From NCBI GenBank assembly GCA_025999215.1, contig AP024679.1, positions 433,082 through 497,081 on the forward strand: DNA of 64,000 bases, given 5' to 3'. The translations under genes and the position numbers were made by a program. This DNA comes from Candidatus Dojkabacteria bacterium (GTDB taxonomy: Bacteria; Patescibacteriota; Dojkabacteria; J137). Below the pieces are notes generated by a model. That model ran no database searches. It was not told the origin of the DNA and saw only the letters and a list, made by a program, of their open reading frames with translations. The first letter of the stretch is position 1; each line of letters starts with the position of its first letter. Below are positions 8,418 to 44,744 of the stretch, one piece after another.

Positions 8418-8420
8418 AAT

Positions 8421-14690: not shown

Positions 14691-15963
14691 AATTTAATTT
14701 AGTTTCTGAGTATAAACCTGCTGGTGATCAACCACGAGCGATTGATACGCTTTCTAATGGTTTGCTTGCTGGGAATCAAGCACCAAACGCTTGGTTGGTG
14801 CGACCGGAACTGGTAAAACTTTTACAATGGCAAATATCATACAAAATCTTGGGAAACCTGCTTTAATTCTTTCTCACAACAAAACTTTAGCTGCTCAATT
14901 GTTTGCTGAATTTAAAAAATTTTTTCCTTACAATGCTGTTGAGTATTTTGTGAGTTACTACGATTATTATCAGCCTGAGGCTTATGTTCCCTCAAGAGAT
15001 TTGTATATTGAGAAAGATGCCGATATAAACGACACAATTGAGCGGTACAGGTCTTCAGCTAGCCAGTCGCTTTTGACAAGAAAGGATGTGATTGTAATTT
15101 CAACCGTTAGTTGTATCTATGGGCTAGGGAATCCTGCAGATTATTTAGAATTAAGTTTTGAATTTAATGTTGGGGAAAGTTATAAACGCGATAATATTTT
15201 AGCGCGACTAACAGATATGCAGTATGAAAGAAACCAACTTGATTTCATGCCTGGGAGTTTTAGAGCCATTGGTGAGATTATTGATATTTATTTAACAAAT
15301 GCAAATGATGAAGCTGTAAGGTTAGAGTTTTTTGGTGATGAATTGGAATCTATAAAGATAATTAATCCTCTAACAGGCGAGTTTGTAAAAAATTTAAATT
15401 CAGTTATTATTTTTCCTGCCAAACACTATGTAAGTCCACATCATAAACTAATGGAAACGATTGAAACAATAAGAGAAGATATGAAAAAAGAAGTTCAGCA
15501 ATTTTTGGATAAAGGAAAGGTGGTGGAAGCAACGAGACTTAAGCAAAGGGTTGAATATGATTTGGAAATGATTGCTGAAACAGGTTTTGTAAAAGGCATT
15601 GAAAATTATTCTAGATACATTGACAGAAGACCACCCGGAAGTGCGCCATCATGTTTAATTGATTATTTTCCTCATGATTACATTATGTTTATTGATGAAT
15701 CACATATAACTGTTCCGCAAATTGGAGGAATGTACAATGGCGATCGCGCACGGAAACAGAGCTTGGTAGATTATGGTTTTAGGATGAAAGCAGCGCTAGA
15801 TAATCGACCTTTGAAATTTGAAGAATTTGAACAAAAATTAAACCAAGTTATTTACACCACGGCAACGCCAAGGGATTATGAAATTCAGAAAAGCATGAAT
15901 GCAACAGAAGAAATTAGGGAAAAAAGCCCTCAAATATTCAGTGGAAAAATGTTAGAATATTAG
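14687..15963 (+). CDS. uvrB: Excinuclease ABC subunit B, N-terminal roughly 415-residue portion only. There is a -1 frameshift near 14775-14795 and a premature end at 15963.
   Basis: MEFNLVSEYKPAGDQPRAIDTLSNGLLAGN (frame 2) continues as LVGATGTGKTFTMANII...YFVSYYDYYQPEAYVP...FIDESHITVPQIGGMYNGDRARKQSLVDYGFRMKAALDNRPLKFEEF...YTTATPRDYEIQKS (frame 1), which is canonical UvrB. After EIQKS the frame diverges and stops. Confidence 0.85.
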
Positions 15964-16914: not shown

Positions 16915-18834
16915 TCACACCAAGGAAGCTTTGAGTCGCCTCAGGTTTGAGCCTATGTTTTCTTGTTTTAAAATTTTGAACTTTTTATTATTCTCTCCCA
17001 AAACTCCTGTTGTTTCAACATGCGGTCCTCCGCAAAACTCTTTTGAGAAACGCCTCATCTAAACTATTACCTATAAAATAAATGGTTACTTTGTCGGGAT
17101 ATTTTTGTCCAAACTCCATTTCTGCACCAATTTTTTGTGCTTCGCCTGAGAGGCATTTCTACTCTCTTCACTGGTAAATTTTCTGTGATCTTTTGATTGA
17201 CAATATCTTCAATTTTTTTGATTTCCTCTTCTGTAATTTTTTTTGAATAGTTAAAATCTATTCTTAATCTTTCAGAAGTTATGTTGCTACCTCTCTGGTG
17301 AATATTTTCGTCTAACACAAGCTGTAATGCTCTCAAAAGCAAGTGGTGAGCTGTGTGAAGCTTGGTTGTTTCGTGCGAGTGATCTGCCAAGCCTCCAGTA
17401 AATTTTTTTTGAGCGCCGGCACGAGATTGTTCTTTATGTTGTTCTAGCAACGTTTTAAAACCAACTATGTCTACTATAAATCCTATTTCTTTTGATAATT
17501 CTTGTGTCATTTCTACTGGAAATCCATAAGTTTCATAAAGATGGAAAGCTTCTTCACCTTTTAAGAAATTTCTATGAGGATTTTCGGATTTTTTGATATC
17601 AGTAACGATTTTGTAAAATTGCTTAATACCATTGTCTAGAGTTTTTCTAAATTTTATTTCTTCTTTATCTATTTCATCAATTATAAACATCTCCTTTTCT
17701 TTAAGATGAGGATAAGCATCTTTCATTTTTTCAATTACTAGGCTTGCCAAATCCTTGGTGAAATTTTTTTCTATTCCAAGAATTTTTGCATGTCTTATCA
17801 TCCTTCTGATTAAGCGCCTCAAAATATACCCTTGATCTTTGTTAGATGGCGCAATTCCATCGGCAAGAATAAAAGTTGATGCTCTTGCATGATCAGCTAT
17901 AATCCTGAATGCTTTCGTATATTTACTTCTGTTCTTCGTTGTGATCGTATTTGTGGCCTGATATATTTTCTATTGCGTTGATGTAGTCAATAAATAAATC
18001 AGTTTCGTAAACTGAGCGCTTGTTTTGAACTGTAGCGACAATTCTGTCTAGCCCTCCTCCATAATCAATGTTTTTTTGCTCCATAGGCTTCCATTTTCCA
18101 TCCTCAAATCTGTATTCCATAAAGACACTGTTTCCAATTTCTAAGTATCTTCCTGAATCATCATTAATGTGCAGTTTTTCTCCAGTATCATTTAATACTG
18201 TTTGCATATCATAAAAAATTTCTGAGCACGGTCCACCCAATTCTCCATTAACCTCGGGCCCTCTCTGCCACCAATTGTCTTTTTTACCATAAGGAAATAT
18301 TCTAAATTGCCAATTTTGACTTGATTCACCCTGTTGAGGAACATTTGTAATATCTTCACTAAATTTCGCTTCTATTCCATATTTTTTAAATGCCTTTATC
18401 CATGCGTCAATGGCTTCATCATCGCGAGGTATATTATCATCTCCTCCCCAGACGCTAGCAAAAATTCTTTGGGGATCAAGTCCGAACTTTTCTACATAAA
18501 GCTCCATTTTCCAAAGTATTTGTTCAGTTTTTGAAAAAGCGCCCAAAGACCAGTTACCGATCATTTCAAAAAAAGTTAAGTGATTGTAGTCGCCAACATC
18601 TTCAATATCATTTGTTCTTAGACATCTTTGTACATTACACAATCTTTTTCCCAAAGGATGAGGCTGTCCAGCTAGATATGGCACAAGTGGAAACATGCCT
18701 GAATTTACAAAAAGTAAAGTTGGATCATTATTTGGGACAAGGGATACATTCGGGATAATTTTTGCATTTCTTGGAGAACTTGTCCAAAATTTCAAAAATT
18801 CATTTCTTATTTCATCGGATGTTTTCATGAACAA
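16915..18834 (-). pseudogene. alaS: Alanyl-tRNA synthetase (catalytic, tRNA-recognition and editing regions) with three or more frameshifts. It ends without a C-Ala domain.
   Basis: The N-terminal core is LVPNNDPTLLFVNSGM...QRCLRTNDIEDVG...HLTFFEMIGNWS. Frame breaks occur at about 17920 (…EEQK* then KAFRIIADHARAS…), about 17148 (MPL then EAQKIGAEMEFGQKYPDKV) and about 17070 (…then FSKEFCGGPHVETTGVL…RRLKASLV*). Confidence 0.75.
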
Positions 18835-22096: not shown

Positions 22097-24664
22097 ATGA
22101 TACTACAAAAAATTTTTTTTACAATGAAATATTTAAAGTTAACAAAAAAAATATTCACTACAGTTTTGGTTTTTGGCATTTTTGGATTGGTTTTGCCTTC
22201 TATTTGGAGTGTAAATGCTATAGTAGATGTGCCTTTAGAGACTTACTCGAATACGCAGACAGAGGTAATTAAACCTACACCATCAATGAATGGTTTGTTT
22301 TGTTTTGTTCCTGCTGAAGTTAATCAAGCACTCTATGGATGTCCTATAGTTACAAGTTGTGGTTTCTTTAGTGATTTAATGTCTGTTGGTGAGACTGTTC
22401 TTTCTGGTACTACCTTTTTTAACACAGCATGTGATGCAACTAATGGAGATTCACAATTTAATCCTAATTCAGGAATTGGTTTAAATCACGTGGCATTAAA
22501 TGGTATTGATACTTTGTTAAACTTAAGACCTGTAAGTGGTGTAGATTATATTAACCAGAATGTTTATGCATTATCAAAGTTGGGTAACGTGAGCGCACAA
22601 GATGGTGGTAGGGTGCTTCCATATTATCCTGGACTTGGTTATCAGTTACAGGCACCAATGCAAGCTTTTTGGGGCTGGTCCGTTAATATAGTTTATGGTT
22701 TTTTGATAGTTTTGATAATTGTTGTAGCACTTGCAATAAGTTTCAGGCAAAGATTAGGCGGTAGCGCTGTTGTTACTTTACAAAATTCTATCCCAAATAT
22801 TGCTCTTGCTATGATTTTAGTACCACTCAGTTTTGCAATTACTGGTTTGTTTATTGATGCTATAACTGTCGGTTCGAATGTTGTTCATGGTTTTCTATTG
22901 GGACCTGGATCACCAGGTAGGGTTGTTATAGAAGGCGATGAAAACGATCGGCCCTTTAGTAGGGATCTATATCCAGATGATCCTGATTTACAGTTGTTAC
23001 AAGGAAGTATTGGAAACCCATTGGAATTATCTATTGAGGGTGGTACGGTTGGAGATGCTGCTTTTGATATTATTATTGGAGATAAAGGCACCACGAGGGA
23101 TGCAATTGATAAAGGTTTGTTAATTTTTTCTCCACTTTTTCCATTTGCAGCTATAACTATACTACTACAAGGTATATCTCAAATTCCAGTTGTTGGTGAA
23201 AGAACTACTTCTAGTATTTCTGAGTTGTTTGGTTTTGGCAGTGAGATTCCGCAGTTTGCAGCTTCGTGGTGGATAGGCCAATTTTTCACTTTATTTATGA
23301 ATATAATATTCTTTTTCACAGGTTTACGAATTTTATGGTTATTATTAAAAAAGTTTTTTGTTTTGATGATATCGCCTGTATTTTCTCCTTTTGTGTTTGC
23401 AACTATAGCAATTCCTGGAGTAGGTATGAAAAATGTTTATTCTTTTTTGAAATCACTAGGTGCTGTTTCAATATTTTATATTGTTGCTTATTCTATGATT
23501 TTGTTGGCAAATATTATTGGTAATATAAAATTTGTACAAAGCATAGAGCAACAATTTCAAGTTTCAGGTTATGTACCTCCATTACTAGGATTTAGTGGCA
23601 AATTTATTGAATTATCGGAAAAAATAATTAGTAGTGAAGGTACTGAAACTGGAGTCAATGCTTTAGTTTACTTGGTTATGTCTAGTGTTGCGGTTGTCAT
23701 CTATTTATCTATTCCAAAAACTCTAAGAGATATTGATAGAAGATTGGGAACAGATAGATCTATGTTAATGCCTATTTTGCAAGATACTATTCAGAGCGCA
23801 AGAGATTCTCTTGGAATTGGTAGAGAGTTAGGGTTATATGGTGCCAACTTAGCTGCGAGCGCCTACAATAGGTTTGCAGGTGTGGAAGCAGGGCAACCTG
23901 GAAGTGCGCAATACAGGTTTAGAAGATTTTTTTCTAACTCTTTGAATAGGTTAGATTCTCAATCAAATGATCCAAATAGGAGTTTTTTGGGTAGAGTTGC
24001 ATCTAGGTATGATAGGTTTGTAACAGGTCAAGTTGCTAGAGCTTTAGGTGTAACACCGCAAGGTTTTGATGAGCAAGGAAGGAGGTTGCCTGCTTCATTT
24101 AAGGTTCAATTTGTTCCAACTAAGTATGTAAATGAGTTTGGAATTATAACTTTTCCAAACTCATTCATTCAAGAAATATGTCAAGCAGCTACAGATGTTG
24201 GATCTAATAAATGGTCAATTGAGGGTTTTGTGATAATGAAGATAACTGCTGAAAATGCTGAGTTACCTTTTACATTTGATACAAATTCTGTTAGTATTCA
24301 AGAAGCAGTTAAAGCACCTGATGGTGCAACAGACATACCATCAGGTAAAACGGATACTCAAAGGTTGTATAAAGAGAAAGTAGATATATTTGGTGTGAGT
24401 AAAGCAACTAAAGGGGCTTTGTCCATTCAGCTGTCACCTAGATCTGCTCCTATGCCAACTGATGGTAAATCTGCAGGTATATTGTTTGATTTGGTTATAA
24501 ACGATGTAAGGAAATTGTTTGGATGGGATGGTCAAAAAATTGTAAAAGGGGACGCTATTATTTCAACTGTTTCCTCTGTCGTTATGTCGGACAAGATTTT
24601 CTTTGTTTTTAGGGATGGTGCTGCAGGACCAGTAAGGTTGCAATTGGGCGCAACACCTGATTAA
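22097..24664 (+). CDS. Large polytopic membrane protein of 855 aa. It has a signal peptide, an extracytoplasmic domain and 8 or more TM helices, and tentatively resembles TrbL/VirB6-like channel proteins.
   Basis: The call rests on topology only. Hydrophobic helices are clustered between residues about 190-270 and 340-520, with a long hydrophilic C-terminal domain. No sequence-search support. Confidence 0.4.
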   Translation: MILQKIFFTMKYLKLTKKIFTTVLVFGIFGLVLPSIWSVNAIVDVPLETYSNTQTEVIKPTPSMNGLFCFVPAEVNQALYGCPIVTSCGFFSDLMSVGETVLSGTTFFNTACDATNGDSQFNPNSGIGLNHVALNGIDTLLNLRPVSGVDYINQNVYALSKLGNVSAQDGGRVLPYYPGLGYQLQAPMQAFWGWSVNIVYGFLIVLIIVVALAISFRQRLGGSAVVTLQNSIPNIALAMILVPLSFAITGLFIDAITVGSNVVHGFLLGPGSPGRVVIEGDENDRPFSRDLYPDDPDLQLLQGSIGNPLELSIEGGTVGDAAFDIIIGDKGTTRDAIDKGLLIFSPLFPFAAITILLQGISQIPVVGERTTSSISELFGFGSEIPQFAASWWIGQFFTLFMNIIFFFTGLRILWLLLKKFFVLMISPVFSPFVFATIAIPGVGMKNVYSFLKSLGAVSIFYIVAYSMILLANIIGNIKFVQSIEQQFQVSGYVPPLLGFSGKFIELSEKIISSEGTETGVNALVYLVMSSVAVVIYLSIPKTLRDIDRRLGTDRSMLMPILQDTIQSARDSLGIGRELGLYGANLAASAYNRFAGVEAGQPGSAQYRFRRFFSNSLNRLDSQSNDPNRSFLGRVASRYDRFVTGQVARALGVTPQGFDEQGRRLPASFKVQFVPTKYVNEFGIITFPNSFIQEICQAATDVGSNKWSIEGFVIMKITAENAELPFTFDTNSVSIQEAVKAPDGATDIPSGKTDTQRLYKEKVDIFGVSKATKGALSIQLSPRSAPMPTDGKSAGILFDLVINDVRKLFGWDGQKIVKGDAIISTVSSVVMSDKIFFVFRDGAAGPVRLQLGATPD

Positions 24665-24674
24665 GGAAGTTTAC

Positions 24675-25691
24675 TTATTTAGCTCCAGCTCCTCTTAACC
24701 TATTAATCAATCCCACGACACTAGTTGGGTTCCTTTTGTCTCCAAAAAGAGCTTCAAAAAAGGTCCCTCCTAACGCACTTGTAAATTTACCGACATTGCT
24801 ATGAACTGGATTAAAAAGTGGCCTGGGCTTACTACCTTGTTCGAGTATATCCTTTATTGTTCTTGTATCTCCAAAAAAACTTGCAAAAAGACGAATTGGA
24901 AAAAGTTTTCTATTTTTTGTATACAAATAATTAACAGGTTTGTTTTTTCCTAGAGTTTGATACATATTACCTTCTATGTATGTTTGTGACTCCAAGCGAC
25001 TGCATGTTTTAAAAATTTTTTCAAAATACCTTATTTTTCTGTTTGGAATAGGGCGATTAAATTTTTTTGTAACAAGAAAACTATGAAAATCAGGATCTTT
25101 TGATTTTATTTTTTCAAGGAGCTCTATACGTCCTTGTATACTTTGTAGTTGCCTTTCTATAGGTAAAATTTGATTTAAGAGTGATTTTGGTAAACCATAT
25201 TCTTTTCGGAGCTCTTGTAAGACCCTTCTTCTTGCTTGCTGTTTAGACATAGCATTATTTGTTCCTAGTGTTTCAATTACTCTTTTTTCAAAAAAATTTT
25301 TTAAAGATTCTAAATCATTAGCTCTTTGTGCCTGATCGGTAGGGGTGGTAGTCGTTTGCTGTCCATTTGTAACATTTGGATTGTTTGTTTCAGTTGATGA
25401 TGAGAGTTCTTGTAATTTTTGATTAAGTCTTCCTATAAATTTATTTATAACATTTTCAACATCACTTGATTGAAGGGATTGTAATTCAGTAACTTCTATT
25501 CCAAGGGTTTGCCCGATCGGTTCAATAATCTCTTTAATGGTTGTAGTCAGCTTTTCGATATTTAGGTTAGCATTTGACTGTAGTTCTAATAGAAGTGCTT
25601 CCAATTCACTTAAAGCTTTATTCAAACTGTTTAAATTTTCATTTGTATTTTCTATTGGCTCGTTCGGTTGGGGTGGAATTGCTGATACCAT
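24675..25691 (-). CDS. Hypothetical coiled-coil protein (338 aa).
   Basis: The N-terminal half is heptad-rich with Q/N/T-rich linkers. No recognised motif. Confidence 0.45.
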   Translation of the reverse strand: MVSAIPPQPNEPIENTNENLNSLNKALSELEALLLELQSNANLNIEKLTTTIKEIIEPIGQTLGIEVTELQSLQSSDVENVINKFIGRLNQKLQELSSSTETNNPNVTNGQQTTTTPTDQAQRANDLESLKNFFEKRVIETLGTNNAMSKQQARRRVLQELRKEYGLPKSLLNQILPIERQLQSIQGRIELLEKIKSKDPDFHSFLVTKKFNRPIPNRKIRYFEKIFKTCSRLESQTYIEGNMYQTLGKNKPVNYLYTKNRKLFPIRLFASFFGDTRTIKDILEQGSKPRPLFNPVHSNVGKFTSALGGTFFEALFGDKRNPTSVVGLINRLRGAGAK

Positions 25692-25884
25692 TTTAATTTA
25701 CTAACATAAGAATTAATAAAACATGCCTGTAATTGTACTAATTTTATCAATTTTTAGTAATAATTAAAAATTTTTTATCAATTATATTTTTGTATTGTAA
25801 AATTTACCTTATAAGACTAAGTATTGAATAGTAAATTATTATTGATATAATTGTTTAATAATTAATCAATATATTTCAAAAGAT

Positions 25885-26424
25885 GTGAACAAATTAACTG
25901 AAATTTCTAATAGGTTTCGAGATAAAAAACTTAATGAGGTAACTAAAAAGTTAGCTAGAAAAGGTTTAGCTTCTGTTACTGGAGGGTCGTCTGAGCTTAT
26001 TCTAAAACTTAGAAATTTTGCAAAAAAACACAAAACTTTATCAATTACCATAGGATTATTTGCTTTTTTATTACCTTTATTACCCTTGTGTTTGCTTTTA
26101 TTTTTACCCCTTTTGTATGGTAATTTGCTTGATTTAGGGTATAGATTTGTAAAAGATAAATTACAAAGTATAATAAAAGATACTTTTTTAGACAGTATTT
26201 TTGGTGCTACATCAGATTTACCAACCTTTGCAGAAAATATTGAAAATGGCCGTTATTCCTGTATTGGTGATACTTATTTATTAGATACTCTTACGGGTGA
26301 AATTGTGAGTTTGTATGATATGTCACAGGAGCTTCAGGTAAATTTGACTTGTTTGCAACCTTTAGAGGTATATTTGGATCTGAAGTCGCAACAAAATATT
26401 AAAAATAGGTTTTTAGACAAATAA
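25885..26424 (+). CDS. Hypothetical membrane protein (179 aa).
   Basis: It has a central Leu/Pro-rich TM hairpin (LSITIGLFAFLLPLLPLCLLLFLPLLYG). Confidence 0.4.
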   Translation: MNKLTEISNRFRDKKLNEVTKKLARKGLASVTGGSSELILKLRNFAKKHKTLSITIGLFAFLLPLLPLCLLLFLPLLYGNLLDLGYRFVKDKLQSIIKDTFLDSIFGATSDLPTFAENIENGRYSCIGDTYLLDTLTGEIVSLYDMSQELQVNLTCLQPLEVYLDLKSQQNIKNRFLDK

Positions 26425-26593
26425 TTTTAAGTAGTTTTTTTTGACAAATTTATTTAGTAGAAAAACTAAGTGGAAATATTAATGGATGCTTACAAAATAT
26501 CATAAAGATTCTTGAGATCAATGATAGTTATAAAAATAACAGATGTGGTATAAACTTTAATTTTAAAAATTAAGTTAAACTAAATTTTGAGGT

Positions 26594-28318
26594 TTAAGTA
26601 TTTTTATTTTCAAAACTTTGAGGCTCATTGTAGGTCGGGGGCGTATAATAATTTGTAGTTATTGTAGTATCTGTAGCTGGTATTTGATATTGTTCCGTAA
26701 TTATTTCACTTTCAGTAGTTTTAATTTCTTCTTCTAATTCATCGGTGTCTCTTCTCCAAAGTGCGTACAGAAACCAAGGCACAAAAAGCAATACCAAAGA
26801 ACTAAAACAAATTAATAAAACTATAAATATTGAGTTTGGATTAATTTCTCGATTAAATAAAATTAAGCTTTCGTGTTTGTTTTGAGATTCTTCTCTCTCA
26901 AGAGGAGTTGGATCAACGCGAAACTGCCAATCAAAACTATTTGCTGCACCGCTTGTGTCACCTATTTCAACTTTTACATTGTGTAGACCTTCTTTTGCTA
27001 AATCTGTTGTAATGATACATCTAAACTCACTTTCGATCACTTCACAATTTTCCGAAATATCTTTTCCATCAAAATAAACTCTGAGGCTTTTCTCATCGAT
27101 GGATGAGTTTTGTGACGGTACTAATTTACCTTCAATTGTTTTTACCTCGGTAACAGTTGAATCTATTTCTGGTTTTACATTTAAAATCAAAGGAATGCTT
27201 GTTATTGTTTCATTTTGGTTTACCACAAACTTAGGAGAAACCTTACTTATTGCTATGCCATTATCAAACTGTACTTTAATTCGTAAGTAGTAAACTCCTT
27301 CACTCAAACTACTTACATCCCAACTAAATTTCCTTTCATTATTTTCAAGCTCAGCAATTTGAAAAAAGGTTTCTAAATTTGAACTATACTCAAGTATTTG
27401 TGATTTAGTTTGAGAATCTGGGCTTATTTCCCATACTATCTCTAGTAAATTATTTTCAATAATTTGGTCAGATTTTGGAGACAAAAATTCTAGAGAAATC
27501 TCAGCTTCTTTCATAGATTCACCATTATCTTGCTCTTCGTTTGGTTGATTGCTGTTAGAATTGTTTTGGCTTTGGTTAGATCCTAAAGATTCACTCACTT
27601 GAGTGTCTAAATTTTTTACGGTCAGTTTAAATTGTTGTTCAACTTCTCCACTTAATCCGTCATCAATTGAAATTATAACAGTGTAAGTGAGTTCACCTTG
27701 AGAAATTGTTGGCGTTTGAATTTTTAAGTTTGAACCGTTTAGTGTAACAAAGCTAGGAGCTTGCTTTATTCGAAAACTAATAGTATCACCATCAGCATCA
27801 AAACCTTCTAGTTTAAAAGTAAATTGCTCATTTTCATTCAAAATTAAATCATTCGGAAATTTTGTGAATGTTGGTAGTTCGTTTTGATTAGTGATTGTAA
27901 CAATTCTGGAGTTACAAACACTGTAGTAATTTTCGTTTTGGAGTTGTAAGCAAATTCTTAAACAATAATCTCCATCATTTAAATTGTTTGTGAGTGTTGA
28001 ATTTGTATTCCATGTTACAGTGTAGGGATCAGTTTGGCTAGATTGTCCAGTTGATGCGCTAGTTATACTTCCAAAATTTTGTGTGCAATTTTGTGAATCT
28101 AGAATTTCAGCCACAAAGGGGATGTTTTCGTTGTCATCATCATACATTATCCAAGAAACGTTTACTTCTCCTTTTAATTTTTTGTTGGGTGCAGGTTCAA
28201 TAACTTTAAAAACATCATTCACATCAGCTAGGGTGTTTGCTGTCGTATTTGTTTTAAAAAGTAAAAAAACTAGGCCAAGCGCTATAAAGCCAGTTAAAAA
28301 AATTTTGTTAAAATTCAT
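26594..28318 (-). CDS. Surface protein with a signal peptide, Ig-like/He_PIG-type beta repeats and a C-terminal TM anchor.
   Basis: The N-terminus MNFNKIFLTGFIALGLVFLLF is a signal peptide. Repeats are rich in T/S/N with conserved Cys pairs. The C-terminal IFIVLLICFSSLVLLFVPWFLYALWRRD is a TM segment with a positive stop-transfer. Confidence 0.55.
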   Translation of the reverse strand: MNFNKIFLTGFIALGLVFLLFKTNTTANTLADVNDVFKVIEPAPNKKLKGEVNVSWIMYDDDNENIPFVAEILDSQNCTQNFGSITSASTGQSSQTDPYTVTWNTNSTLTNNLNDGDYCLRICLQLQNENYYSVCNSRIVTITNQNELPTFTKFPNDLILNENEQFTFKLEGFDADGDTISFRIKQAPSFVTLNGSNLKIQTPTISQGELTYTVIISIDDGLSGEVEQQFKLTVKNLDTQVSESLGSNQSQNNSNSNQPNEEQDNGESMKEAEISLEFLSPKSDQIIENNLLEIVWEISPDSQTKSQILEYSSNLETFFQIAELENNERKFSWDVSSLSEGVYYLRIKVQFDNGIAISKVSPKFVVNQNETITSIPLILNVKPEIDSTVTEVKTIEGKLVPSQNSSIDEKSLRVYFDGKDISENCEVIESEFRCIITTDLAKEGLHNVKVEIGDTSGAANSFDWQFRVDPTPLEREESQNKHESLILFNREINPNSIFIVLLICFSSLVLLFVPWFLYALWRRDTDELEEEIKTTESEIITEQYQIPATDTTITTNYYTPPTYNEPQSFENKNT

Positions 28319-28354
28319 GCCTGATTATAGCAGTTTTTACTACAAATTTGCAGA

Positions 28355-29797
28355 TCAATCTAATTCTCCTGCACTATCTATCAAAATTTGAACATCGTTT
28401 TCGGCAGAAGATATTGCGCTCGAACTTGCATTCTTATCAATTAATTCTTTGAAAATTTCCTTAACTTGCAAACCCTTTACTTGACGCCAAGTTTTCGCAT
28501 GCGGCAAAGATTCATTGTAAATTTTTAAGTAACTATCACTTTCAAGTTCATTTGACATATCAAGCCTTGGGTAAAGAATTCCAAAGTCATACCCGTAGAA
28601 ATTTTTGATGTTATCACTAAGTTTTTTTAACTGCTGAGGCTCACTCATCCAGCTTAAGAAATCCCAAGCAACAGTTGAGTACGGTCTTGAGTTTGATACT
28701 ACTACCCCCCAGTAGTCCGTCCAATTAATTACAGGTTCATCTTGTCCTTGCAGTTGAGGAACTTGAGATATGCCAATATCCAAGCCTAAATCGTACTGTT
28801 TATTGTAAAAAAGTATGTCTCGCAATCTCCAACTTGGAGCATAAATCATTGCAGTTTTGCCTTCTAAGAAAGTTTTAGCATCGTTATCAAGGTTTGGACT
28901 CCAAGTTTGAAATTCATTTGTAGTAAAACTTTTATAAAAAATTATAGCATCAAGCGCATCTGGATCAGTTGAAAAAGTTGCATTACCATTTACATCTGTA
29001 AATTCTACCCCATTTTGTGCAAACAAAGTAAAAAGTAGTTGTGTTGGAAAGCTTACATTTTGAGAAGTTCCAGCAGCGAAACCAGCTTGAGTGATGATGT
29101 CACCATTTTTTTTGGTTAGATTTACTGCCACATTTCTAAATTCAGCCCATCCTGTTGGTGGAGCACTAATAGCGCTTTGTTGTAAAAGATCTTTGTTATA
29201 AATGATTGCAAAAGTGTCCATCCAAAGAGGAACCCCAATCACTTGACCGTTTGGTGCAAAATCGCTTACCACTGCTGGATAAAATTTACTTTGAAAAGTC
29301 TGCAAATTTTCTGTCGTGCTAATTCTTACATATGGCACATAATCAGCGGCCCAAGAGTTGTGAACCATAAACATATCTGGAATCTCAACGCTATTTCCAG
29401 ATGATATAACCCTATTCAATTCGCTATTGTATTGTTGCTCAGCGTTCTCAAATTTCCCACCGGGCCACTTATTGACATATTCAATTGTTACATTAGGCTT
29501 GATTGATTTATAATCGTCAAGCAGCGGGTTAACTACTTCTTCATCCACAAATACACCCCACCATTGTAGTACAACTGGGTCTGCATTAGCTGAATCAGGG
29601 GTTGAATTGTTTGATGAATTATTTGATCCAAGTAGTAAAAATATTAGTAAGATAAAGAGTATTATACCAATTACCACCAAAATTAATACCGCGAAGTTTT
29701 TGTTAGATGGAGGTTTAGAGCTTTTTTGCGTTGTTTCTTCGTAACTAAATGAAGGGTTAGCATACCCATAGGTTTGTGTTGTATAAGCATCTGCCAT
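28355..29797 (-). CDS. Extracellular solute-binding protein (ABC transporter family 1, sugar-type), membrane-anchored. No adjacent permease or ATPase genes.
   Basis: It has an N-terminal TM anchor, the LQWWGVF motif and an overall MalE-like length and composition. Confidence 0.6.
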   Translation of the reverse strand: MADAYTTQTYGYANPSFSYEETTQKSSKPPSNKNFAVLILVVIGIILFILLIFLLLGSNNSSNNSTPDSANADPVVLQWWGVFVDEEVVNPLLDDYKSIKPNVTIEYVNKWPGGKFENAEQQYNSELNRVISSGNSVEIPDMFMVHNSWAADYVPYVRISTTENLQTFQSKFYPAVVSDFAPNGQVIGVPLWMDTFAIIYNKDLLQQSAISAPPTGWAEFRNVAVNLTKKNGDIITQAGFAAGTSQNVSFPTQLLFTLFAQNGVEFTDVNGNATFSTDPDALDAIIFYKSFTTNEFQTWSPNLDNDAKTFLEGKTAMIYAPSWRLRDILFYNKQYDLGLDIGISQVPQLQGQDEPVINWTDYWGVVVSNSRPYSTVAWDFLSWMSEPQQLKKLSDNIKNFYGYDFGILYPRLDMSNELESDSYLKIYNESLPHAKTWRQVKGLQVKEIFKELIDKNASSSAISSAENDVQILIDSAGELD

Positions 29798-29886
29798 ATA
29801 GATATACTATCACTATTTTTATAAAGTTTCTAATTTTTTGATTTTTTCTTTTTTGTCTAAAATTTAGTTTTAGTTTAAAATGAGTT

Positions 29887-31074
29887 ATGGCTAATTCGTT
29901 ATATAAAACAACAGCAAATGCTAGAAAAATTTTGTTTGCTTTTTTAGTATTTTCTTTGCTAATTGTTGTTAATGATTTTTACCAAAGTTTGTCAAAAACT
30001 CAAACAGATTTTGGTTTGAATTCTCAAAGAAGGTTTTATATGTCTACTAAGTTTTTTGATTTTTTAGATGATATTCCACCAGTTCCTGATATTCCAGGTA
30101 TTCCTCGTGATACAAATGATTCTCTAACTTATTCTGTTGAAGGAGTTTTTTCCGAATTTCCTGATATTTCTTATGTTTATACAATTGAAGAGCCAGCTGA
30201 AAAACTTCTCACATTTCAAAATGCACAAAATATTGCAAGTGAGCTTGGATTTAACTCAGAAAATTTTTCTGAAAGTGGCCAGTCTCAGGTTGTGTGGTCT
30301 AAAGATAATGGCGCTACAACTTTAACATTCGATAGGGTTTTACAGACATGGAATATGAAAACCGATTTGACAAACAATCCTCGATTTAATCCTGTTCAAA
30401 AAATTGTACAAAATCGTTTGAATAATTTATCTCTCACTTTGCTTAGTCGTATTAGGTTAAATGGAGGGAAGGGTTTTAATAATGGTTTATCTGAAAATAT
30501 TTTTTTAAAAAGGGAGGCAAATGGTGATTTGGTTGAAGTTACAGATTCAAATCAAGCACAGCTTATATTGTCAAATGCTTATAGAATACTACCTTTGGCT
30601 GATCTGAAACCACAGAGCGAACAGCCGGAACTATTACCTGGTGAAGTAAGACCTCGACCAGTTTCGGCAAAGGTTTATACTTCTGATCCTTTTCGTGGTT
30701 CTGCAAATTTTTTAACCAAGGGAAGTGAACCTGAAGATGACATTTACGAATTTTCTTTCATTAATTGGGAGTATGGTGTTGATGTAGGAGCTTATCCAAT
30801 TATCACTCCACAAGAAGCGTGGAATAATGTTCAGCAAGGTCAGGGAAGTTTGGTGTTTATAAGGCAACAAGGAGATAGTAGAATTGGTGGAAGAGATCCT
30901 TTAAATGTGAGAAGGTATGTTTTAGAAGCAGACAAAACAGAAATAGCTTTTTATGAACCTAGTGAGTGGAATGGTTTTGTTACTCCAGTTTATATATTTA
31001 GAGGAAGAGCTGAACTAGAGAACGGAAGGCAAGCAAGTTTTATATTTTATATTGATGCTCTTAAAAGATTATGA
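29887..31074 (+). CDS. Hypothetical N-anchored secreted protein (395 aa). It is the first gene of a four-gene plus-strand cluster with overlapping start/stop codons.
   Basis: It has an N-terminal TM segment (ILFAFLVFSLLIVVNDF). Its stop overlaps the next start (ATGA). Confidence 0.5.
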   Translation: MANSLYKTTANARKILFAFLVFSLLIVVNDFYQSLSKTQTDFGLNSQRRFYMSTKFFDFLDDIPPVPDIPGIPRDTNDSLTYSVEGVFSEFPDISYVYTIEEPAEKLLTFQNAQNIASELGFNSENFSESGQSQVVWSKDNGATTLTFDRVLQTWNMKTDLTNNPRFNPVQKIVQNRLNNLSLTLLSRIRLNGGKGFNNGLSENIFLKREANGDLVEVTDSNQAQLILSNAYRILPLADLKPQSEQPELLPGEVRPRPVSAKVYTSDPFRGSANFLTKGSEPEDDIYEFSFINWEYGVDVGAYPIITPQEAWNNVQQGQGSLVFIRQQGDSRIGGRDPLNVRRYVLEADKTEIAFYEPSEWNGFVTPVYIFRGRAELENGRQASFIFYIDALKRL

Positions 31075-32270
31075 AAAAATTACTAATAAGTCTAACAGTT
31101 TTAATGATTTTTTTTCAATTTATAAATTTTAATTCATACGCGTCGGGTTCATCAGACGCTGCTTGTAGTGATCCTGAGGTTAGAATAGGTAGAATAGCAT
31201 TTTTAACTGCTCTTGCAACTGAAATAATTAATAACCCGGGTATTGTGACTTATCTTAAGGAAGCAGTAGATAACCAATATGATGGTAATAGCTCTAATGA
31301 TTATTTTACTGGGCATTCACTAGATTATCAAGGAACTTTTTGTGAGGATAATGGTAAAGTATACTTGTTATGTACAGCAATGGATGGAAAGGTTTGTGTA
31401 AATAGATATTGGCATTTGTCAAGAGAAGAAGCTGATAACTTAGCAAAATCTGAAAATGATAGTACTTACGATGATGAAAAAGGACCTAGATTTGCAAATA
31501 CTTTAATTCCTGAAGAACAATATGATAATGAACTTTATCGTTGTGGTCAATTTTTAGAAAGTGACTTAAACTATGAACAACAAGATTTAGTTTATAGTGA
31601 ATATAATTTGTTTTATGTTCTGCGCAATCTTTATTTAGATTTTTTTTCTTCAATAAGCGTCACTGATGATGATCGTGATCAAGTTGATAGAAGTATTGCA
31701 GATATTTATGACACTTATAACCCTAAAGATATTGATGATCAGTATTTTTTTTCAACGGCACCGTATTCGGATTGGTTTGATATAAATTGGAATAGGCTTT
31801 ACAGTTGTGTTAATAGTGGGGTAACACAAGGGGACTTTTTCTATATTGATCGTGAAAAAGCAGATTCGGAATATAGACTTATTAATGACAACAATAACAA
31901 TAATAATAATAGTAACATAATTAGCAGTAAATGTAATGGAATAGATTGTTGTGCAGAAAATGATCAGCAATGTAGAAGTTGTGTAGGAGCTGGAGGAGTA
32001 TGGACGGCTGTTGGGTGTATAGATCCAAGTCCGGTTGGCGTGTTAACAAGGCTTGTGCAGTTAGGATTGGGAATAATGGGAGGAGTTGCGCTGATTCAAA
32101 TAATATATGCGGGCATAATGTACCAATCAGGAAATGAAGAGAAAATAAGGAAAGCAAGAGAGCAATTATTGGCAACGCTAACAGGGCTAGCGGTATTGGT
32201 GTTTAGCGTATTGATAGTACAAATATTAGGAGTTAATTTACTTGATACAGTACCAGCTGGTTTATTGTAA
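31071..32270 (+). CDS. Secreted Cys-rich protein, paralogue A. It has a variable N-terminal domain plus a conserved C-terminal module (Cys cluster and two TM helices).
   Basis: It has a signal peptide (…NFNSYA|SG). The C-terminal 115 aa, CNGIDCC…GVWTAVGCIDPSPVGVLTRLVQLGLGIMGGVALIQIIYAGIMYQSGNEEKIRKAREQLLATLTGLAVLVFSVLIVQILGVNLL, are about 95% identical to paralogue B. Confidence 0.6.
   Translation: MKKLLISLTVLMIFFQFINFNSYASGSSDAACSDPEVRIGRIAFLTALATEIINNPGIVTYLKEAVDNQYDGNSSNDYFTGHSLDYQGTFCEDNGKVYLLCTAMDGKVCVNRYWHLSREEADNLAKSENDSTYDDEKGPRFANTLIPEEQYDNELYRCGQFLESDLNYEQQDLVYSEYNLFYVLRNLYLDFFSSISVTDDDRDQVDRSIADIYDTYNPKDIDDQYFFSTAPYSDWFDINWNRLYSCVNSGVTQGDFFYIDREKADSEYRLINDNNNNNNNSNIISSKCNGIDCCAENDQQCRSCVGAGGVWTAVGCIDPSPVGVLTRLVQLGLGIMGGVALIQIIYAGIMYQSGNEEKIRKAREQLLATLTGLAVLVFSVLIVQILGVNLLDTVPAGLL
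31985..32270. repeat. Near-identical roughly 290 bp direct repeat (copy 1) encoding the shared C-terminal module.
   Basis: A run of over 110 bp is identical to 33215-33330, and the repeat is about 95% identical overall to 33195-33497. Confidence 0.8.
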
Positions 32271-32282
32271 TGTTATAGTATT

Positions 32283-33497
32283 ATGTTTGTGATACAGAAA
32301 ATATTAGGTAAAATTTTTCATAATTCAATAAATACATTCATATTCGTTTTTGTAGTAACTTTCATCTTTGTGTCGGTTTTTGGTAGTAATATCTCAGCAC
32401 AAATTTCCAATACGTGTACAATTGTGAATTATATAAACGAAAATGATATTGATTTGTTTAAAGACTTTTCTGTGTGTGATGTTGTTGTTACCAATGAAGA
32501 AAATCAGCTGATAGATGTTACACTGCCCGAATGCACTACAATAAAAGATTTACAAAACAATCAGTTTTTTTATTGTCCATATAGGGGAGGTGATGCGATA
32601 AGTTTGACTGAAACAGCAAGCTCTCAAGAAATTAGAAATGACTTAGAATCCTGTAAGGAAAAATGGAGAACAGGTCTTTTAAGTTTTGACGGTTTACCAA
32701 CAATTACAAATTTTTTACAAACGGATTCAGATATAGAAGAGTTGGTAACTTTTTTTCAGACAAATTCGGTAATTGAAATAGCAAATATTTGCTCAGTTAA
32801 TTCTGAAACAATAGTTGAAGCTGAAGATTGTCCAAGAATAGAAGGTAGTTTTTTCATGAATGATTTAGTTAGCCAAAACACTGTAGAATTATCTCTTACA
32901 GATATTTGCTTAAAAAAAACAGGCGTAACTCAAATTGATATACTCTACTCTTATGATTTGTCTTTTAATGATTTTGAGAAAACTGAAAATCCTCAAGGTA
33001 TTCTTTTAGCACGTTTTACTTTAGATCCAAGTGGTAGCGGAAAAGTGTTAAATTTACCGCTTACATCTGAAATAAATATCAACAATAGCAATCATTTAAT
33101 TGTATGGGTCAAGGAGGATAAGAGTCTAAATCTAAAATACTCCAAACCGAACTCTAATAATTGTCAAGGAATAGACTGTTGTGCTCCAGGAGATTTTGAA
33201 TGTAGATGTTTACAAAGTGGAGGAGTATGGACGGCTGTTGGGTGTATAGATCCAAGTCCGGTTGGCGTGTTAACAAGGCTTGTGCAGTTAGGATTGGGAA
33301 TAATGGGAGGAGTTGCGCTGATTCAAATAATATATGCAGGTATAATGTACCAATCAGGAAATGAAGAGAAAATAAGAAAAGCAAGAGAGCAGTTGTTAGC
33401 AACACTAACAGGACTTGCGGTATTGGTATTTAGTGTATTGATAGTGCAGATACTGGGAGTTAATTTACTAGATACGATTCCAGCTGGTTTATTGTAA
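32283..33497 (+). CDS. Secreted Cys-rich protein, paralogue B, with the same conserved C-terminal two-TM module.
   Basis: See paralogue A. The N-terminal 290 aa are unrelated in sequence. Confidence 0.6.
   Translation: MFVIQKILGKIFHNSINTFIFVFVVTFIFVSVFGSNISAQISNTCTIVNYINENDIDLFKDFSVCDVVVTNEENQLIDVTLPECTTIKDLQNNQFFYCPYRGGDAISLTETASSQEIRNDLESCKEKWRTGLLSFDGLPTITNFLQTDSDIEELVTFFQTNSVIEIANICSVNSETIVEAEDCPRIEGSFFMNDLVSQNTVELSLTDICLKKTGVTQIDILYSYDLSFNDFEKTENPQGILLARFTLDPSGSGKVLNLPLTSEININNSNHLIVWVKEDKSLNLKYSKPNSNNCQGIDCCAPGDFECRCLQSGGVWTAVGCIDPSPVGVLTRLVQLGLGIMGGVALIQIIYAGIMYQSGNEEKIRKAREQLLATLTGLAVLVFSVLIVQILGVNLLDTIPAGLL
33195..33497. repeat. Near-identical roughly 290 bp direct repeat (copy 2).
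   Basis: See copy 1. Confidence 0.8.
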
Positions 33498-33498
33498 T

Positions 33499-35232
33499 AT
33501 GAAATTTATAAAATTTGCACAACTTCTACAATCGCTAGAAAAAACTAAAAGCAGGAATGATATGACTAGTCTTCTGGCTGAATTTTTAGATGGTATAACG
33601 GAACAAGAGTTTGTTGTGGTTTACCTTATTCAAGGAAGATTGAAACCTAAGTTTGTAGATTTAGAATTTAATTTATCTCAAAAATTGATTCTCAAAGCTC
33701 TAGAAAATTTAGGTGATTCTAATATGCTTTTTAAAGATTTGGGAGATTGTGGTTTGGTGGCCGAAAAGCTTTGTAGTGATGCAAGTGATGATTTAGAAAT
33801 TGTTGAGGTTTATGAAAAACTTATTGAAATTGCAAACTTGAAGGGAGCGGGATCTCAAGATTCTAAAATTGAAATGTATCTTGAATTGATTAAGAATGTA
33901 AAACCTCTGAGTGCAAAATACATTACAAGAGTAATTGTGGGTAATTTGAGATTGGGTTTGAGTGATAAAACTATTTTAGATTCAATTTCTTGGCTTAAAA
34001 AAGGTGATAAGTCATTAAGATCAATTTTAGATAGAGCTTACGGCATAAGGTCAGATATTGGAGAAATTACTAAAATTACCTTATTCAATAAAGATTTTGA
34101 AAATATTCTAAACTCAATTTCACTAAAGCCTCTAACACCTGTAGCTTCAAAACTCGTTGAAAGAGCAAAAGATACAAAAGAAGTTTGGGAGCGTATGCCA
34201 AATTGTTTTGTGCAGCCCAAATTAGACGGATTAAGAGGACAAATTCACTATGATGGGAATGAAAATGTTGAAATATTTAGTAGAAATATGGAAAGGTTAA
34301 CTTTGCAATTTCCTGAAATTGTTGAGGAAATAAAACAAAATTTTAATAATTCCTTTATCTTGGATTCTGAAATAATAGGTTGGGATGAAGAAAATAAAAC
34401 TTTTTTACCCTTTCAAGAAACAATTAAACGAAAAAGGAAATATGATATTCAAAACCACCTCAAATCGATTCCTATAAAGGCAATGTGTTTTGATGTTTTG
34501 TATTTTGATGGAACTGATCTTACCCAAAAGCCACTAAATGAAAGGATAAATATTTTGTTCAAAAATTTTGGAAGTAAGAGTAGGTTTTTGGAAATTTTAG
34601 AAACAAAGCAGATAGCATCACTTGATGAACTAACCACGTATTTTGAAGAAAAAGTGTATAGTGGTTTGGAGGGAATTATCACAAAACAATTTGATTCATT
34701 TTATGAACCAGGGACAAGAAATTTTAGCTGGATAAAACTCAAAGCAAACACTGTGTCAAGTTTAGTAGACACGATTGATGTTGTGGTTTTAGGTTATTAC
34801 TACGGAAAGGGAGCTCGAGCAAAGTTTGGTGTAGGGACCTTGTTGGCAGGAGTTTATGACCCTGATAAAAATGAATATTATTCTTTAGGGAAAGTTGGTA
34901 GTGGTTTTACTGACGAAGATTTGAAAAAAATAAAATTTGATTTATGTCAAATTCAGATTTCGGAAAAACCAGATAATTTTATAGTTGATAAAAATATATA
35001 TCCGGACGTTTGGGTTGAACCTAAAATTATAATGGAAATTGTTGCTGATGAAATTACAAGGAGTAATGTACATACAGCAGGCAAAGGTTTTCGGACAAAA
35101 GTAAAAAACGATGATTTTCAAAAAGGTCTATCAATCCGATTTCCAAGGATGAAAATTTGGAATCGCCAAGATAAAGACATTCCTACAACTGTGACTGAAC
35201 TTGTCCGAATGTACGAATTAAGAAAAGGTTAG
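33499..35232 (+). CDS. ATP-dependent DNA ligase.
   Basis: It has the adenylation motif I QPKLDGLRGQIH (KxDG), an N-terminal DNA-binding domain and OB-fold spacing. The length is 577 aa. Confidence 0.8.
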   Translation: MKFIKFAQLLQSLEKTKSRNDMTSLLAEFLDGITEQEFVVVYLIQGRLKPKFVDLEFNLSQKLILKALENLGDSNMLFKDLGDCGLVAEKLCSDASDDLEIVEVYEKLIEIANLKGAGSQDSKIEMYLELIKNVKPLSAKYITRVIVGNLRLGLSDKTILDSISWLKKGDKSLRSILDRAYGIRSDIGEITKITLFNKDFENILNSISLKPLTPVASKLVERAKDTKEVWERMPNCFVQPKLDGLRGQIHYDGNENVEIFSRNMERLTLQFPEIVEEIKQNFNNSFILDSEIIGWDEENKTFLPFQETIKRKRKYDIQNHLKSIPIKAMCFDVLYFDGTDLTQKPLNERINILFKNFGSKSRFLEILETKQIASLDELTTYFEEKVYSGLEGIITKQFDSFYEPGTRNFSWIKLKANTVSSLVDTIDVVVLGYYYGKGARAKFGVGTLLAGVYDPDKNEYYSLGKVGSGFTDEDLKKIKFDLCQIQISEKPDNFIVDKNIYPDVWVEPKIIMEIVADEITRSNVHTAGKGFRTKVKNDDFQKGLSIRFPRMKIWNRQDKDIPTTVTELVRMYELRKG

Positions 35233-44100: not shown

Positions 44101-44744
44101 TCAACTGATTGAATGAAACAAGCGTGAAGTTGAGAACGGGTATAAGCATCTTCTGATAATTTAGTTTCACCAGTTAGTTCATCCACATAGTAGTGACCCT
44201 GTGGAGCGCCTGTGAGACCGTATGCATAATTTAATCCTGTATTAAACCATTGAGGACTGTTGGGCGCACCAATTTGCATAGTTATCATGTATGCGAGTTC
44301 ATCTTGAAAAGCATCTGCATCTTCTTTGCTATTGAAGTATCCATACTCTTCTCCCCAGTGTCTCCAAGCACCGGCTAGCCTTGTAGCTACTTGTTTGATT
44401 GAATTTTCGCCACCCAAAATTACATTACCTTCTTTATCTTTTCTAAGTTCACCTTTAGAGTTTCTTTGAGGAACTCCCTTTTTTCTGCAATATTTTTGAG
44501 CAAGAATGTCTGTAGCCATTTGGCTCCATGAAACAGGAACCTCAACATTTTTCATTTCAAAAACTACTGATCCATCTGGATTCACAATTTTTGAAGATCT
44601 GAATTCAAACTCAATACCATCATACCAATTTTCTTTACCTTTAGTAAAAACTCTTTTAATCTTCAAACCTTTTGATCCGATGTTATCCTTTATTCTTTTT
44701 GAAACATCGGTTGGGCTGATGTTTTTTTGTGGTGAACTGTCCAT
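41130..44744 (-). CDS. nrdJ: Class II (adenosylcobalamin-dependent) ribonucleotide reductase, 1204 aa, with a C-terminal Zn-ribbon.
   Basis: The N-terminus VFTKGKENWYDGIEFEFRSSKIVNPDGSVVFEMKNVEVPVSWSQMATDILAQKYC is typical of class II RNR. The active-site region is NPCSEYMFLDNTACNLASLNL. The C-terminal Cys cluster is CGTCGS...CSVCEDCG. Confidence 0.9.
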   Translation of the reverse strand: MDSSPQKNISPTDVSKRIKDNIGSKGLKIKRVFTKGKENWYDGIEFEFRSSKIVNPDGSVVFEMKNVEVPVSWSQMATDILAQKYCRKKGVPQRNSKGELRKDKEGNVILGGENSIKQVATRLAGAWRHWGEEYGYFNSKEDADAFQDELAYMITMQIGAPNSPQWFNTGLNYAYGLTGAPQGHYYVDELTGETKLSEDAYTRSQLHACFIQSVEDDLVNEGGIFDLVLKEARLFKYGSGTGTNFSPIRGKGELLSGGGTSSGLMSFLKVFDSAAGAIKSGGTTRRAAKMVCVDMDHPEIEEFINWKVVEEQKVAALVSGSHVNYLHLKKIMQSAEQKGINPETNKELKKLIKEAHDNFVPLNFIKQALMLVENGVSSEEFTLEKYDTDFRSEAYSTVSGQNSNNSVRITNEFLEAVQQDKEWKLRNRTDGGVYKTVKARDLWEQIIRAAWQSADPGVQFDTTINEWHTCPADGKINASNPCSEYMFLDNTACNLASLNLVKFYDDKTGKFDVETYKHAIRLWTIVLEISVLMSHLPGKEIAELTYKYRTLGLGYANIGSLLMRQGIPYDSEEGFAITGSLTAILTGESYATSAELAKVRGSFERFEANKEHMMRVIRNHRRAAYNANENEYEGLTIKPMGINPKFAPKYLLEEARKAWDFALDLGEKYGYRNAQVSVIAPTGTIGLVMDCDTTGIEPDFALVKFKKLVGGGYFKIVNQSVEPALQKLGYSKKQIDEIIKYIIGHATLQNAPFINHEVLKSKGFTDKEIMAVEGGLKNAFEIRHAFNKWILGEEFCKDVLGLSDEELNNSNLDILKAIGFSDEEISAASEYACGTMTIEGAPHIKPEHLKVFDCANKCGTKGERYIATLGHLKQMAAAQPFISGAISKTVNLPEDATLEDVEQAYWEGWRLMLKANALYRDGSKLSQPLNSSSDKSSYAELFNFNDEEVVSEDVDSKAVQTIVMKEQSTVKRKRLPDERHSITHKFTVGAIEGYITVGLFEDGTPGEIFLVISKAGSTLSGIMDAFATSLSLNLQYGVPLEVLVEKFTNSKFEPSGMTSNKEIPIAKSLIDYIARWLALKFLDKETAKYYHNEELVEKSYREGSNFRIRIPHINGKGHTEVLNFDNENDEDNMQSFKPIVTDPVQMKLEQQISFDGTLDEDTLLKEAKSKGYTGEICGTCGSVNVRKNGSCSVCEDCGSTTGCS

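Follow-up and report, generated by a model that had tools for sequence, protein, structure and literature searches.

The VirB2-like pilins of the Patescibacteria type IV secretion system (T4SS) form the Pfam family PF18895, are often encoded in arrays of 2-11 genes, and have been found to be essential, as arrays, in Ca. Southlakia epibionticum (PMC10633639, PMC12102498, PMC12857230). PF18895 pilins and their arrays are already known in Patescibacteria. Here we describe a locus in KatS3mg085, a Candidatus Dojkabacteria metagenome-assembled genome (MAG) of one 862,240-bp contig, in which two tandem genes, encoding pilin A and pilin B, fall in the same Pfam family as the arrays of Ca. Southlakia epibionticum ML1 (SEML1_0006-0019) and N. 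lyticus TM7x (PMC10633639, PMC12102498). The window, by which we mean the whole stretch of DNA that was analyzed, covers 64,000 nt of contig AP024679.1 (positions 433,082 to 497,081 of the forward strand), and the locus consists of the genes KatS3mg085_441 to KatS3mg085_448. The locus and the described arrays share the same unit of a signal peptide and a two-transmembrane (two-TM) hairpin, occur as tandem paralogues, and are both chromosomal, without a relaxase, in monoderm ultrasmall bacteria. The array paralogues are divergent (mean 25%, maximum 54% identity) and usually lie beside virB4, whereas the hairpins here are 96-99% identical and no virB4 lies nearby. In addition, the described pilins, of about 100-150 aa, are treated as small proteins, whereas pilins A and B are 399 and 404 aa long, are encoded in a 64-kb window in which no VirB4 was found, and each join the hairpin to a cysteine-rich head of 290 aa.

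With moderate confidence, we read the products of genes A and B as VirB2-like pilins with heads, belonging to the T4SS pilin family of Patescibacteria, in which a constant hairpin adaptor carries exchangeable heads. The two genes and the repeat that they share are as follows.

31071-32270, + strand: headed pilin A, KatS3mg085_447, 399 aa; open reading frame (ORF) with a PF18895 match.
32283-33497, + strand: headed pilin B, KatS3mg085_448, 404 aa; ORF with a PF18895 match.
31977-32271, + strand: direct repeat copy 1, the hairpin module of gene A, 295 nt, from repeat search and alignment.
33204-33498, + strand: direct repeat copy 2, the hairpin module of gene B, 92% identical to copy 1, from repeat search and alignment.
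31991-32110, with its partner at 33218-33337, + strand: identical 120-nt tract from the alignment, read as a recent gene-conversion tract.

Residues 323-386 of pilin A and 328-391 of pilin B match PF18895 (T4SS_pilin) with 28.3 and 27.2 bits, respectively, against a gathering score of 26.6, and nearly the whole Pfam model is covered (positions 7-71 of 71). When 1.84 billion representative proteins were searched with a profile built from the module, 11,390 proteins were returned at E<=1e-3, and canonical multi-repeat PF18895 proteins were among those retrieved, at E values of 1e-25 to 1e-29; P0185, P0204 and P0191, which themselves score 236, 168 and 82 bits against PF18895, were matched at E 7e-29 to 1e-27. 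PF18895 is also matched by 32 of 68 diverse relatives at E<=1e-3. Because the module profile so strongly retrieves the canonical multi-repeat members, membership of the module in PF18895 is secure despite the thin margin of its own scores, and the suggestion of a VirB2-like pilin module in the initial annotation, which was made from the DNA letters without database searches, is supported in the form of a T4SS-type pilin domain. Comparison with classical VirB2 gave a more divided result: when the module family was compared by hhalign with six VirB2/TrbC proteins of the MPF_T type, TM1, loop and TM2 aligned in register with a score of 23.9, above the reversed control (11.3) and the maximum of 30 local shuffles (20.4), with a probability of only 17%. 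The headed pilins gave no hmmscan match to TrbC/VirB2 (PF04956) at E<=0.1, and a PDB sequence profile search with the module returned no useful match and no solved relative. As a separate observation, P0185, P0204, P0191, P0195 and P0222 are "poly-pilins" of 312-552 aa that carry three to six tandem PF18895 hairpins each.

Pilin A runs from a signal-like N-terminus through a cysteine-rich head of about 290 aa, a poly-Asn linker and a cysteine knot (CxGIDCC..C..C) to the PF18895 two-TM hairpin, with hydrophobic segments at residues 4-22, 324-349 and 373-391 and 12 cysteines in the head. Pilin B likewise has a hydrophobic, signal-like N-terminus, its hairpin segments lie at residues 329-354 and 378-396, and its head has 14 cysteines. 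The loop between the two hydrophobic helices is YQSGNEEKIRKAREQ, so that each protein has the PF18895 layout of a signal peptide and two helices separated by a short polar loop. Heads A and B are unrelated (BLASTP, best E 0.41), while the 99-residue module is 96% identical between the proteins, and the final 93 residues differ at just two positions, A/S at the first and V/I close to the end. Within the window, the module is present in two copies, those of genes A and B alone; a scan of genome contigs with the module returned four other Dojkabacteria loci. These results bear out the initial annotation on three counts, namely the unrelated cysteine-rich N-terminal heads, the near-identical C-terminal module, and a repeat of about 290 bp with more than 110 identical bp, which we find as 295 nt at 92% identity with a perfect run of about 120 nt.

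The differences between the two copies are unevenly spread. Across the final 279 nt of genes A and B, nucleotides 2-121 hold no differences and the other 157 nt hold 19, and a difference-free gap of 120 nt would be expected by chance with a frequency of (157/277)^19, or about 2e-5. Against the orthologue at L004, one of the related loci, this 120-nt segment shows 30 differences, which indicates that synonymous sites in this tract are free to change. As the identical tract is both improbable by chance and variable against L004, it is best read, on these sequence comparisons, as a product of recent gene conversion between the two copies, which had been proposed from the repeat itself. Hairpin codons of A and B otherwise show 16 synonymous changes and one non-synonymous change, and the repeat copies as a whole differ at 21 sites, mostly synonymous. 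The initial annotation had also named an assembly collapse as a possible source of the identity. A repeat created by the assembly, whether through two strain alleles joined in tandem or through a collapsed repeat, deserves very little credence: the MAG does hold at least one probable indel error (a frameshift in the alanyl-tRNA synthetase gene), which favors such an artefact, and against it stand the 21 differing sites, two intact ORFs, a junction (end of module A, 12-nt spacer, start of gene B) that is unique in the sequence, and a tandem pair at the same locus in the independent metagenome assembly L021.

Conservation of the hairpin extends well beyond this genome. Against the relative P0002, 77 of 77 hairpin residues are identical in the presence of many synonymous DNA differences, and in the same relatives the ligase, P-type ATPase and methyltransferase are 71-76% identical (71-77% for the neighbouring housekeeping proteins in general) and the whole pilin 41%. 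The hairpin is thus under extreme purifying selection. In addition, an invariant cysteine pair spans the junction of head and hairpin (C..C....GC).

Head diversity was surveyed in the 151 best module-bearing proteins from the profile search, 141 of which have heads. These 151 proteins have a median length of 473 aa and always carry the module at the extreme C-terminus. Head sizes among the relatives range from 200 to 670 aa, with a median of 15 cysteines, and by BLASTP the 141 headed proteins fall into at least 46 unrelated head groups, one of which has 70 members. Head A has relatives only in P0002, a member of the set of 141, and in a 387-aa gene product of L005, and head B is a singleton among the 141. 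A Pfam scan of 68 diverse headed pilins identified no domain in the heads. The earlier proposal of swappable heads on a common anchor therefore holds over the relatives, with 46 head groups among 141 proteins.

Relatives without a head were also found. These are 141-161 aa long, the normal size of a pilin, and consist of the signal peptide, the cysteine knot and the module. At L021, a headless 141-aa copy lies directly upstream of a 518-aa headed copy, an arrangement that looks like a pair of major and headed pilins. As pilin-sized headless members exist, one of them in tandem with a headed copy, the hairpin is a self-sufficient unit to which heads have been added. The order at L021 (2069-6986) is partner (393 aa), headless pilin (141 aa), headed pilin (518 aa) and ligase, and its two hairpins are roughly 80% identical as judged by eye rather than computed.

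These patterns bear on two other explanations of the hairpin. The chief rival to the pilin reading is that the hairpin is a mere membrane anchor, the proteins being surface adhesins or enzymes held on a pilin-derived two-TM tail that does not polymerise and is independent of any T4SS. This is possible, if rather unlikely. It would fit the large heads of 200-670 aa, the lack of a T4SS ATPase near the locus in any genome examined, and the position of the headed pilin amid other secreted or anchored surface proteins at the related loci L007, L009 and L022. However, a stretch of 77 residues kept 100% identical is not what is normally seen in a simple TM anchor when the rest of the proteome is down to about 72% identity, headless relatives of pilin size occur at the same locus, and the conserved loop and cysteine knot point to specific protein contacts.

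In the second explanation, the hairpin serves at the C-terminus as a signal for sorting or secretion, or else the head is a pro-domain; the head would be cleaved off and then either released or passed to another structure, as in the LPXTG, PEP-CTERM and type IX secretion system C-terminal domain (T9SS CTD) systems. The logic of many unrelated passengers on one conserved C-terminal module is indeed shared with LPXTG/sortase, PEP-CTERM/exosortase and the T9SS CTD, sorting signals typically combine a variable passenger with a conserved domain at the C-terminus, and the low-complexity poly-Asn linker ahead of the cysteine knot in gene A also counts in favor of this explanation. The module here differs from those systems in being a pilin-type two-TM hairpin for which no cognate sorting enzyme was identified, and Pfam and NCBIfam searches detected no dedicated protease or sortase in the locus. 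As the invariant cysteine pair at the junction suggests that this part is folded and not cleaved, and as headless versions have no passenger to sort, we consider this explanation quite improbable.

All eight ORFs of the initial annotation, spanning 22097-33497, were found at the positions given for them there. In addition to the two pilin genes, the locus and its immediate 3' neighbour contain the following.

22097-24664, + strand: 855-aa polytopic membrane protein, KatS3mg085_441, in which the TM core, at about residues 180-550, is conserved and the C-terminal region, helical plus beta-rich, is variable.
24675-25691, - strand: 338-aa protein with neither a TM segment nor a family match, poorly conserved, linked by position only.
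25885-26424, + strand: 179-aa single-TM protein, linked by position only.
26594-28318, - strand: 574-aa Ig-like surface protein carrying a signal peptide and anchored by a TM segment at the C-terminus, linked by synteny only.
28355-29797, - strand: 480-aa membrane-anchored solute-binding protein, linked by synteny only.
29887-31074, + strand: 395-aa partner, KatS3mg085_446, with a TM helix at the N-terminus and, outside the cytoplasm, an alpha/beta domain of YycI/YycH/YpeB-like fold.
33499-35232, + strand: ATP-dependent DNA ligase (Pfam DNA_ligase_A_N/M/C).

The 395-aa gene is tightly coupled with the pilin gene. Its stop codon and the start of pilin A share a 4-nt overlap, and the two genes overlap or nearly abut at this point in six of eight loci. 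The partner protein combines an N-terminal TM anchor with a YycI/YycH fold; it has no match in Pfam or NCBIfam, and a PDB sequence profile search with it gave nothing useful. On the other side, the ligase gene starts 1 nt after the stop codon of pilin B and lies 1-10 nt 3' of the pilin gene in seven loci (this window, L001, L003, L004, L005, L011 and L021). The ligase is probably co-transcribed with pilin B, and a functional link between the two is unproven. A promoter and terminator scan of the locus gave signal at the level of shuffled sequence, so the operon structure is read from gene spacing alone. Competence and recombination genes adjoin T4SS genes in another group of the candidate phyla radiation (CPR), as reported in the preprint of the Patescibacteria T4SS paper, and a link of the ligase locus to DNA handling is speculative.

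The 855-aa protein had been described as TrbL/VirB6-like in the initial annotation. The protein is polytopic, and its structural model aligns over 227-240 residues with DotA-IcmX (PDB 9ngy) and R388 TrwI (PDB 7o3v). The same TrwI chains were listed by a Foldseek search of the model against the PDB, where they were not significant. No sequence match accompanies the alignment: Pfam and NCBIfam searches, including the VirB6/TrbL family PF04610, returned nothing for the protein, a PDB profile search with its family gave nothing relevant, and hhalign of the family against three VirB6 proteins gave a score equal to the shuffle maximum. Its 83 homologues have no Pfam domain, and those few with a named source come from Dojkabacteria. 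With moderate support from the modelled structure, the 855-aa protein may be regarded as a candidate extended VirB6/DotA-class protein.

The remaining genes of the locus are connected to the pilins by position alone. The 574-aa protein matches Big_7 with 24.6 bits against a cut-off of 24.1, has TM segments at residues 3-21 and 496-514, and is fast-evolving, with 45% identity to its orthologues compared to 71-77% for housekeeping proteins. The 480-aa protein matches SBP_bac_8 (E 6e-23) and SBP_bac_1 (E 1e-17), has a TM segment at residues 37-55, and has no ABC partners nearby. These matches agree with the earlier description of an Ig-repeat protein (Big_7, 24.6 bits) and an orphan solute-binding protein (SBP_bac_8, E 6e-23). 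A PHROGs search returned no match. Gene order from the 855-aa gene to the ligase is kept in L001, L003, L005 and L011, in relatives whose fast-evolving proteins are down to 27-35% identical. As this synteny includes housekeeping genes, gene order alone is no proof of a functional unit. The further proposal that all eight genes form a single apparatus is accordingly unsupported, since the synteny covers housekeeping genes and the headed pilin stands apart from the other genes in assembly GCA_040006935.1. Two further features were seen at L003, a HEPN/nucleotidyltransferase toxin-antitoxin-like pair (8031-8728) between the solute-binding gene and the partner gene, and a YafQ-like toxin after the ligase.

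Both flanks of the locus carry housekeeping genes, with MutL, MurA/MurB, alanyl-tRNA synthetase, a P-type ATPase and a Cob_adeno_trans-family protein upstream and the ATP-dependent DNA ligase, a methyltransferase, UvrC, a class II ribonucleotide reductase and a MurC-like ligase downstream. The alanyl-tRNA synthetase gene (window 17067-18834, - strand) contains a frameshift near codon 290-303 that splits it into two ORFs (303 and 251 aa), whereas relatives have a single gene of 637-645 aa; the split is probably an assembly indel error, and a pseudogene is less likely. A 674-aa protein (10089-12113, - strand) has no Pfam match and contains about a dozen repeats with the motif APKEAAP(E/G)LA, which resemble HEAT- or armadillo-type helical repeats. 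A UvrB-like ORF (14791-15963, + strand) of just 390 aa has ResIII and UvrB interaction domains without the C-terminal helicase half, and short UvrB-like forms of 412-424 aa occur in relatives as well. The class II ribonucleotide reductase (41130-44744, - strand; 1204 aa) has its barrel domain matched in two stretches, also has a TSCPD domain, and may carry an insertion; its length in relatives is comparable, at 1208-1223 aa.

In order to identify ATPases, Pfam was applied to the larger ORFs of the window and Walker A motifs were sought in ORFs of at least 300 aa. The sole Walker A motif in these ORFs was that of UvrB, and no ATPase of the VirB4, VirD4 or PilB type was found in the 64-kb window, in agreement with the earlier statement that it holds no VirB4 or PilB ATPase. 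VirB4 has been reported in Dojkabacteria assemblies (PMC12102498, PMC10633639, PMC12857230), and the two Dojkabacteria rows found in the supplement of PMC12102498 are both VirB4-positive. These observations also bear on whether the region could be part of a conjugative element, that is, an integrative and conjugative element (ICE) or plasmid with a DNA-transfer T4SS. The name of the pilin family would suggest as much, as would an NCBIfam match to an ICE pilin-like protein, a weak one (E 0.013, 15 bits against a cut-off of 40). The evidence here largely excludes this origin: the locus is chromosomal and syntenic across Dojkabacteria, with a cob(I)alamin adenosyltransferase-family gene and the P-type ATPase on one side and the DNA ligase, UvrC and ribonucleotide reductase on the other; no relaxase, coupling protein, VirB4 or integrase was found in the window; and the whole window has a uniform GC content of about 0.33.

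The headed-pilin reading can be put as a mechanism. An N-terminal signal sequence would export each protein, and the disulfide-rich head would end outside the cell. The hairpin would then insert so that TM1 crosses the membrane out-to-in, the short K/R-rich loop lies on the cytoplasmic side and TM2 returns to the outside, which is the topology of membrane-stored VirB2; we infer this from the signal peptide, the putatively extracytoplasmic cysteines and the two TM helices. As a constant adaptor, the hairpin would have to match a partner that does not change. This could be other copies of the hairpin, in an oligomer or filament, and/or a platform in the membrane, which may be the VirB6/DotA-like 855-aa protein together with the YycI-like 395-aa partner and a VirB4-driven T4SS encoded elsewhere. 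Exchange and fast evolution would be confined to the head, which would most likely bind the host cell surface. The lineage would have duplicated the gene in tandem and given the second copy a different head, with two heads providing two specificities, and gene conversion would keep both hairpins interchangeable for one machinery. Of these elements, family membership, architecture, the selection pattern, the conversion tract, head diversity, the headless relatives and the tight coupling with the partner gene are shown by the sequence data, and the topology, the disulfides, host binding and T4SS assembly are inferred.

Several observations weigh against the headed-pilin reading. The PF18895 scores exceed the cut-off by a thin margin of 1-2 bits, and the direct link of the module to classical VirB2 is weak, given the hhalign probability of 17%. 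No gene for VirB4, VirD4, VirB3 or VirB8 was found in the 64-kb window, and six relatives likewise showed none within 10 kb of their locus. The structural evidence that places the 855-aa protein in the VirB6 class is modest, and the YycI/YycH/YpeB-like 395-aa partner is no known T4SS component. The flanking housekeeping genes are kept in the same order in relatives, and in GCA_040006935.1 the 855-aa-type polytopic protein, the partner and the ligase lie together while the headed pilin is found on another contig among surface proteins. Finally, a 30-kDa head on each subunit would crowd a VirB2-type helical filament, by a rough, uncomputed estimate from published F-pilus geometry.

A broader interpretation is offered tentatively and with considerable doubt. 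In Dojkabacteria, the conjugative-type VirB2 pilin may have become a universal C-terminal adaptor that loads exchangeable, disulfide-rich heads for host recognition onto a T4SS-derived filament or platform, using a dedicated locus away from virB4 in which a VirB6/DotA-like protein, a YycI-like partner and a headed pilin are encoded with a co-transcribed ligase. The result would be a modular host-selection organelle, possibly tied to the uptake of host nucleic acid, and, if true, of a kind not described for any T4SS. In the literature searched, none of three features is described: headed PF18895 pilins with frozen hairpins, a dedicated locus away from virB4, and a structurally VirB6/DotA-like neighbour. 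The T4SS and its VirB2-like pilins are essential for epibiotic life in the single genetically tractable Patescibacterium. The headed pilins, with large and rapidly replaced outer domains on an almost invariant hairpin, are concrete candidates for host-specificity determinants, and the conserved hairpin is a simple marker for finding such determinants in metagenomes. Headed pilins may let ultrasmall bacteria alter their binding target while retaining one assembly machine, and they pose the structural question of whether a VirB2-type filament can bear domains of 30-70 kDa on its subunits. The possible VirB6/DotA-like neighbour, which is invisible to sequence methods, suggests that T4SS parts may be under-counted in some CPR classes.

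Comparison with other known systems places the locus further. Like the extended VirB6/DotA proteins (Legionella Dot/Icm DotA-IcmX, R388 TrwI), the 855-aa protein is polytopic with extra hydrophilic domains, but it has no sequence similarity to them, no VirB5/IcmX-like partner was identified for it, and its gene does not lie beside virB4. The 395-aa partner resembles YycH and YycI, the WalK regulators, and the PepSY-type YpeB of Firmicutes, but it is encoded without a histidine kinase nearby and is coupled to a pilin gene instead. The host-adapted T4SSs of Bartonella (Trw trwL/trwJ) and Anaplasma (virB2) have amplified variant VirB2/VirB5 genes, as cited in PMC12102498. As at this locus, the pilin paralogues of those systems are in tandem, and they are thought to widen or vary recognition of the host surface. 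There, the variation lies inside a small pilin, whereas here the pilin part is frozen and the variation lies in the added N-terminal domain.

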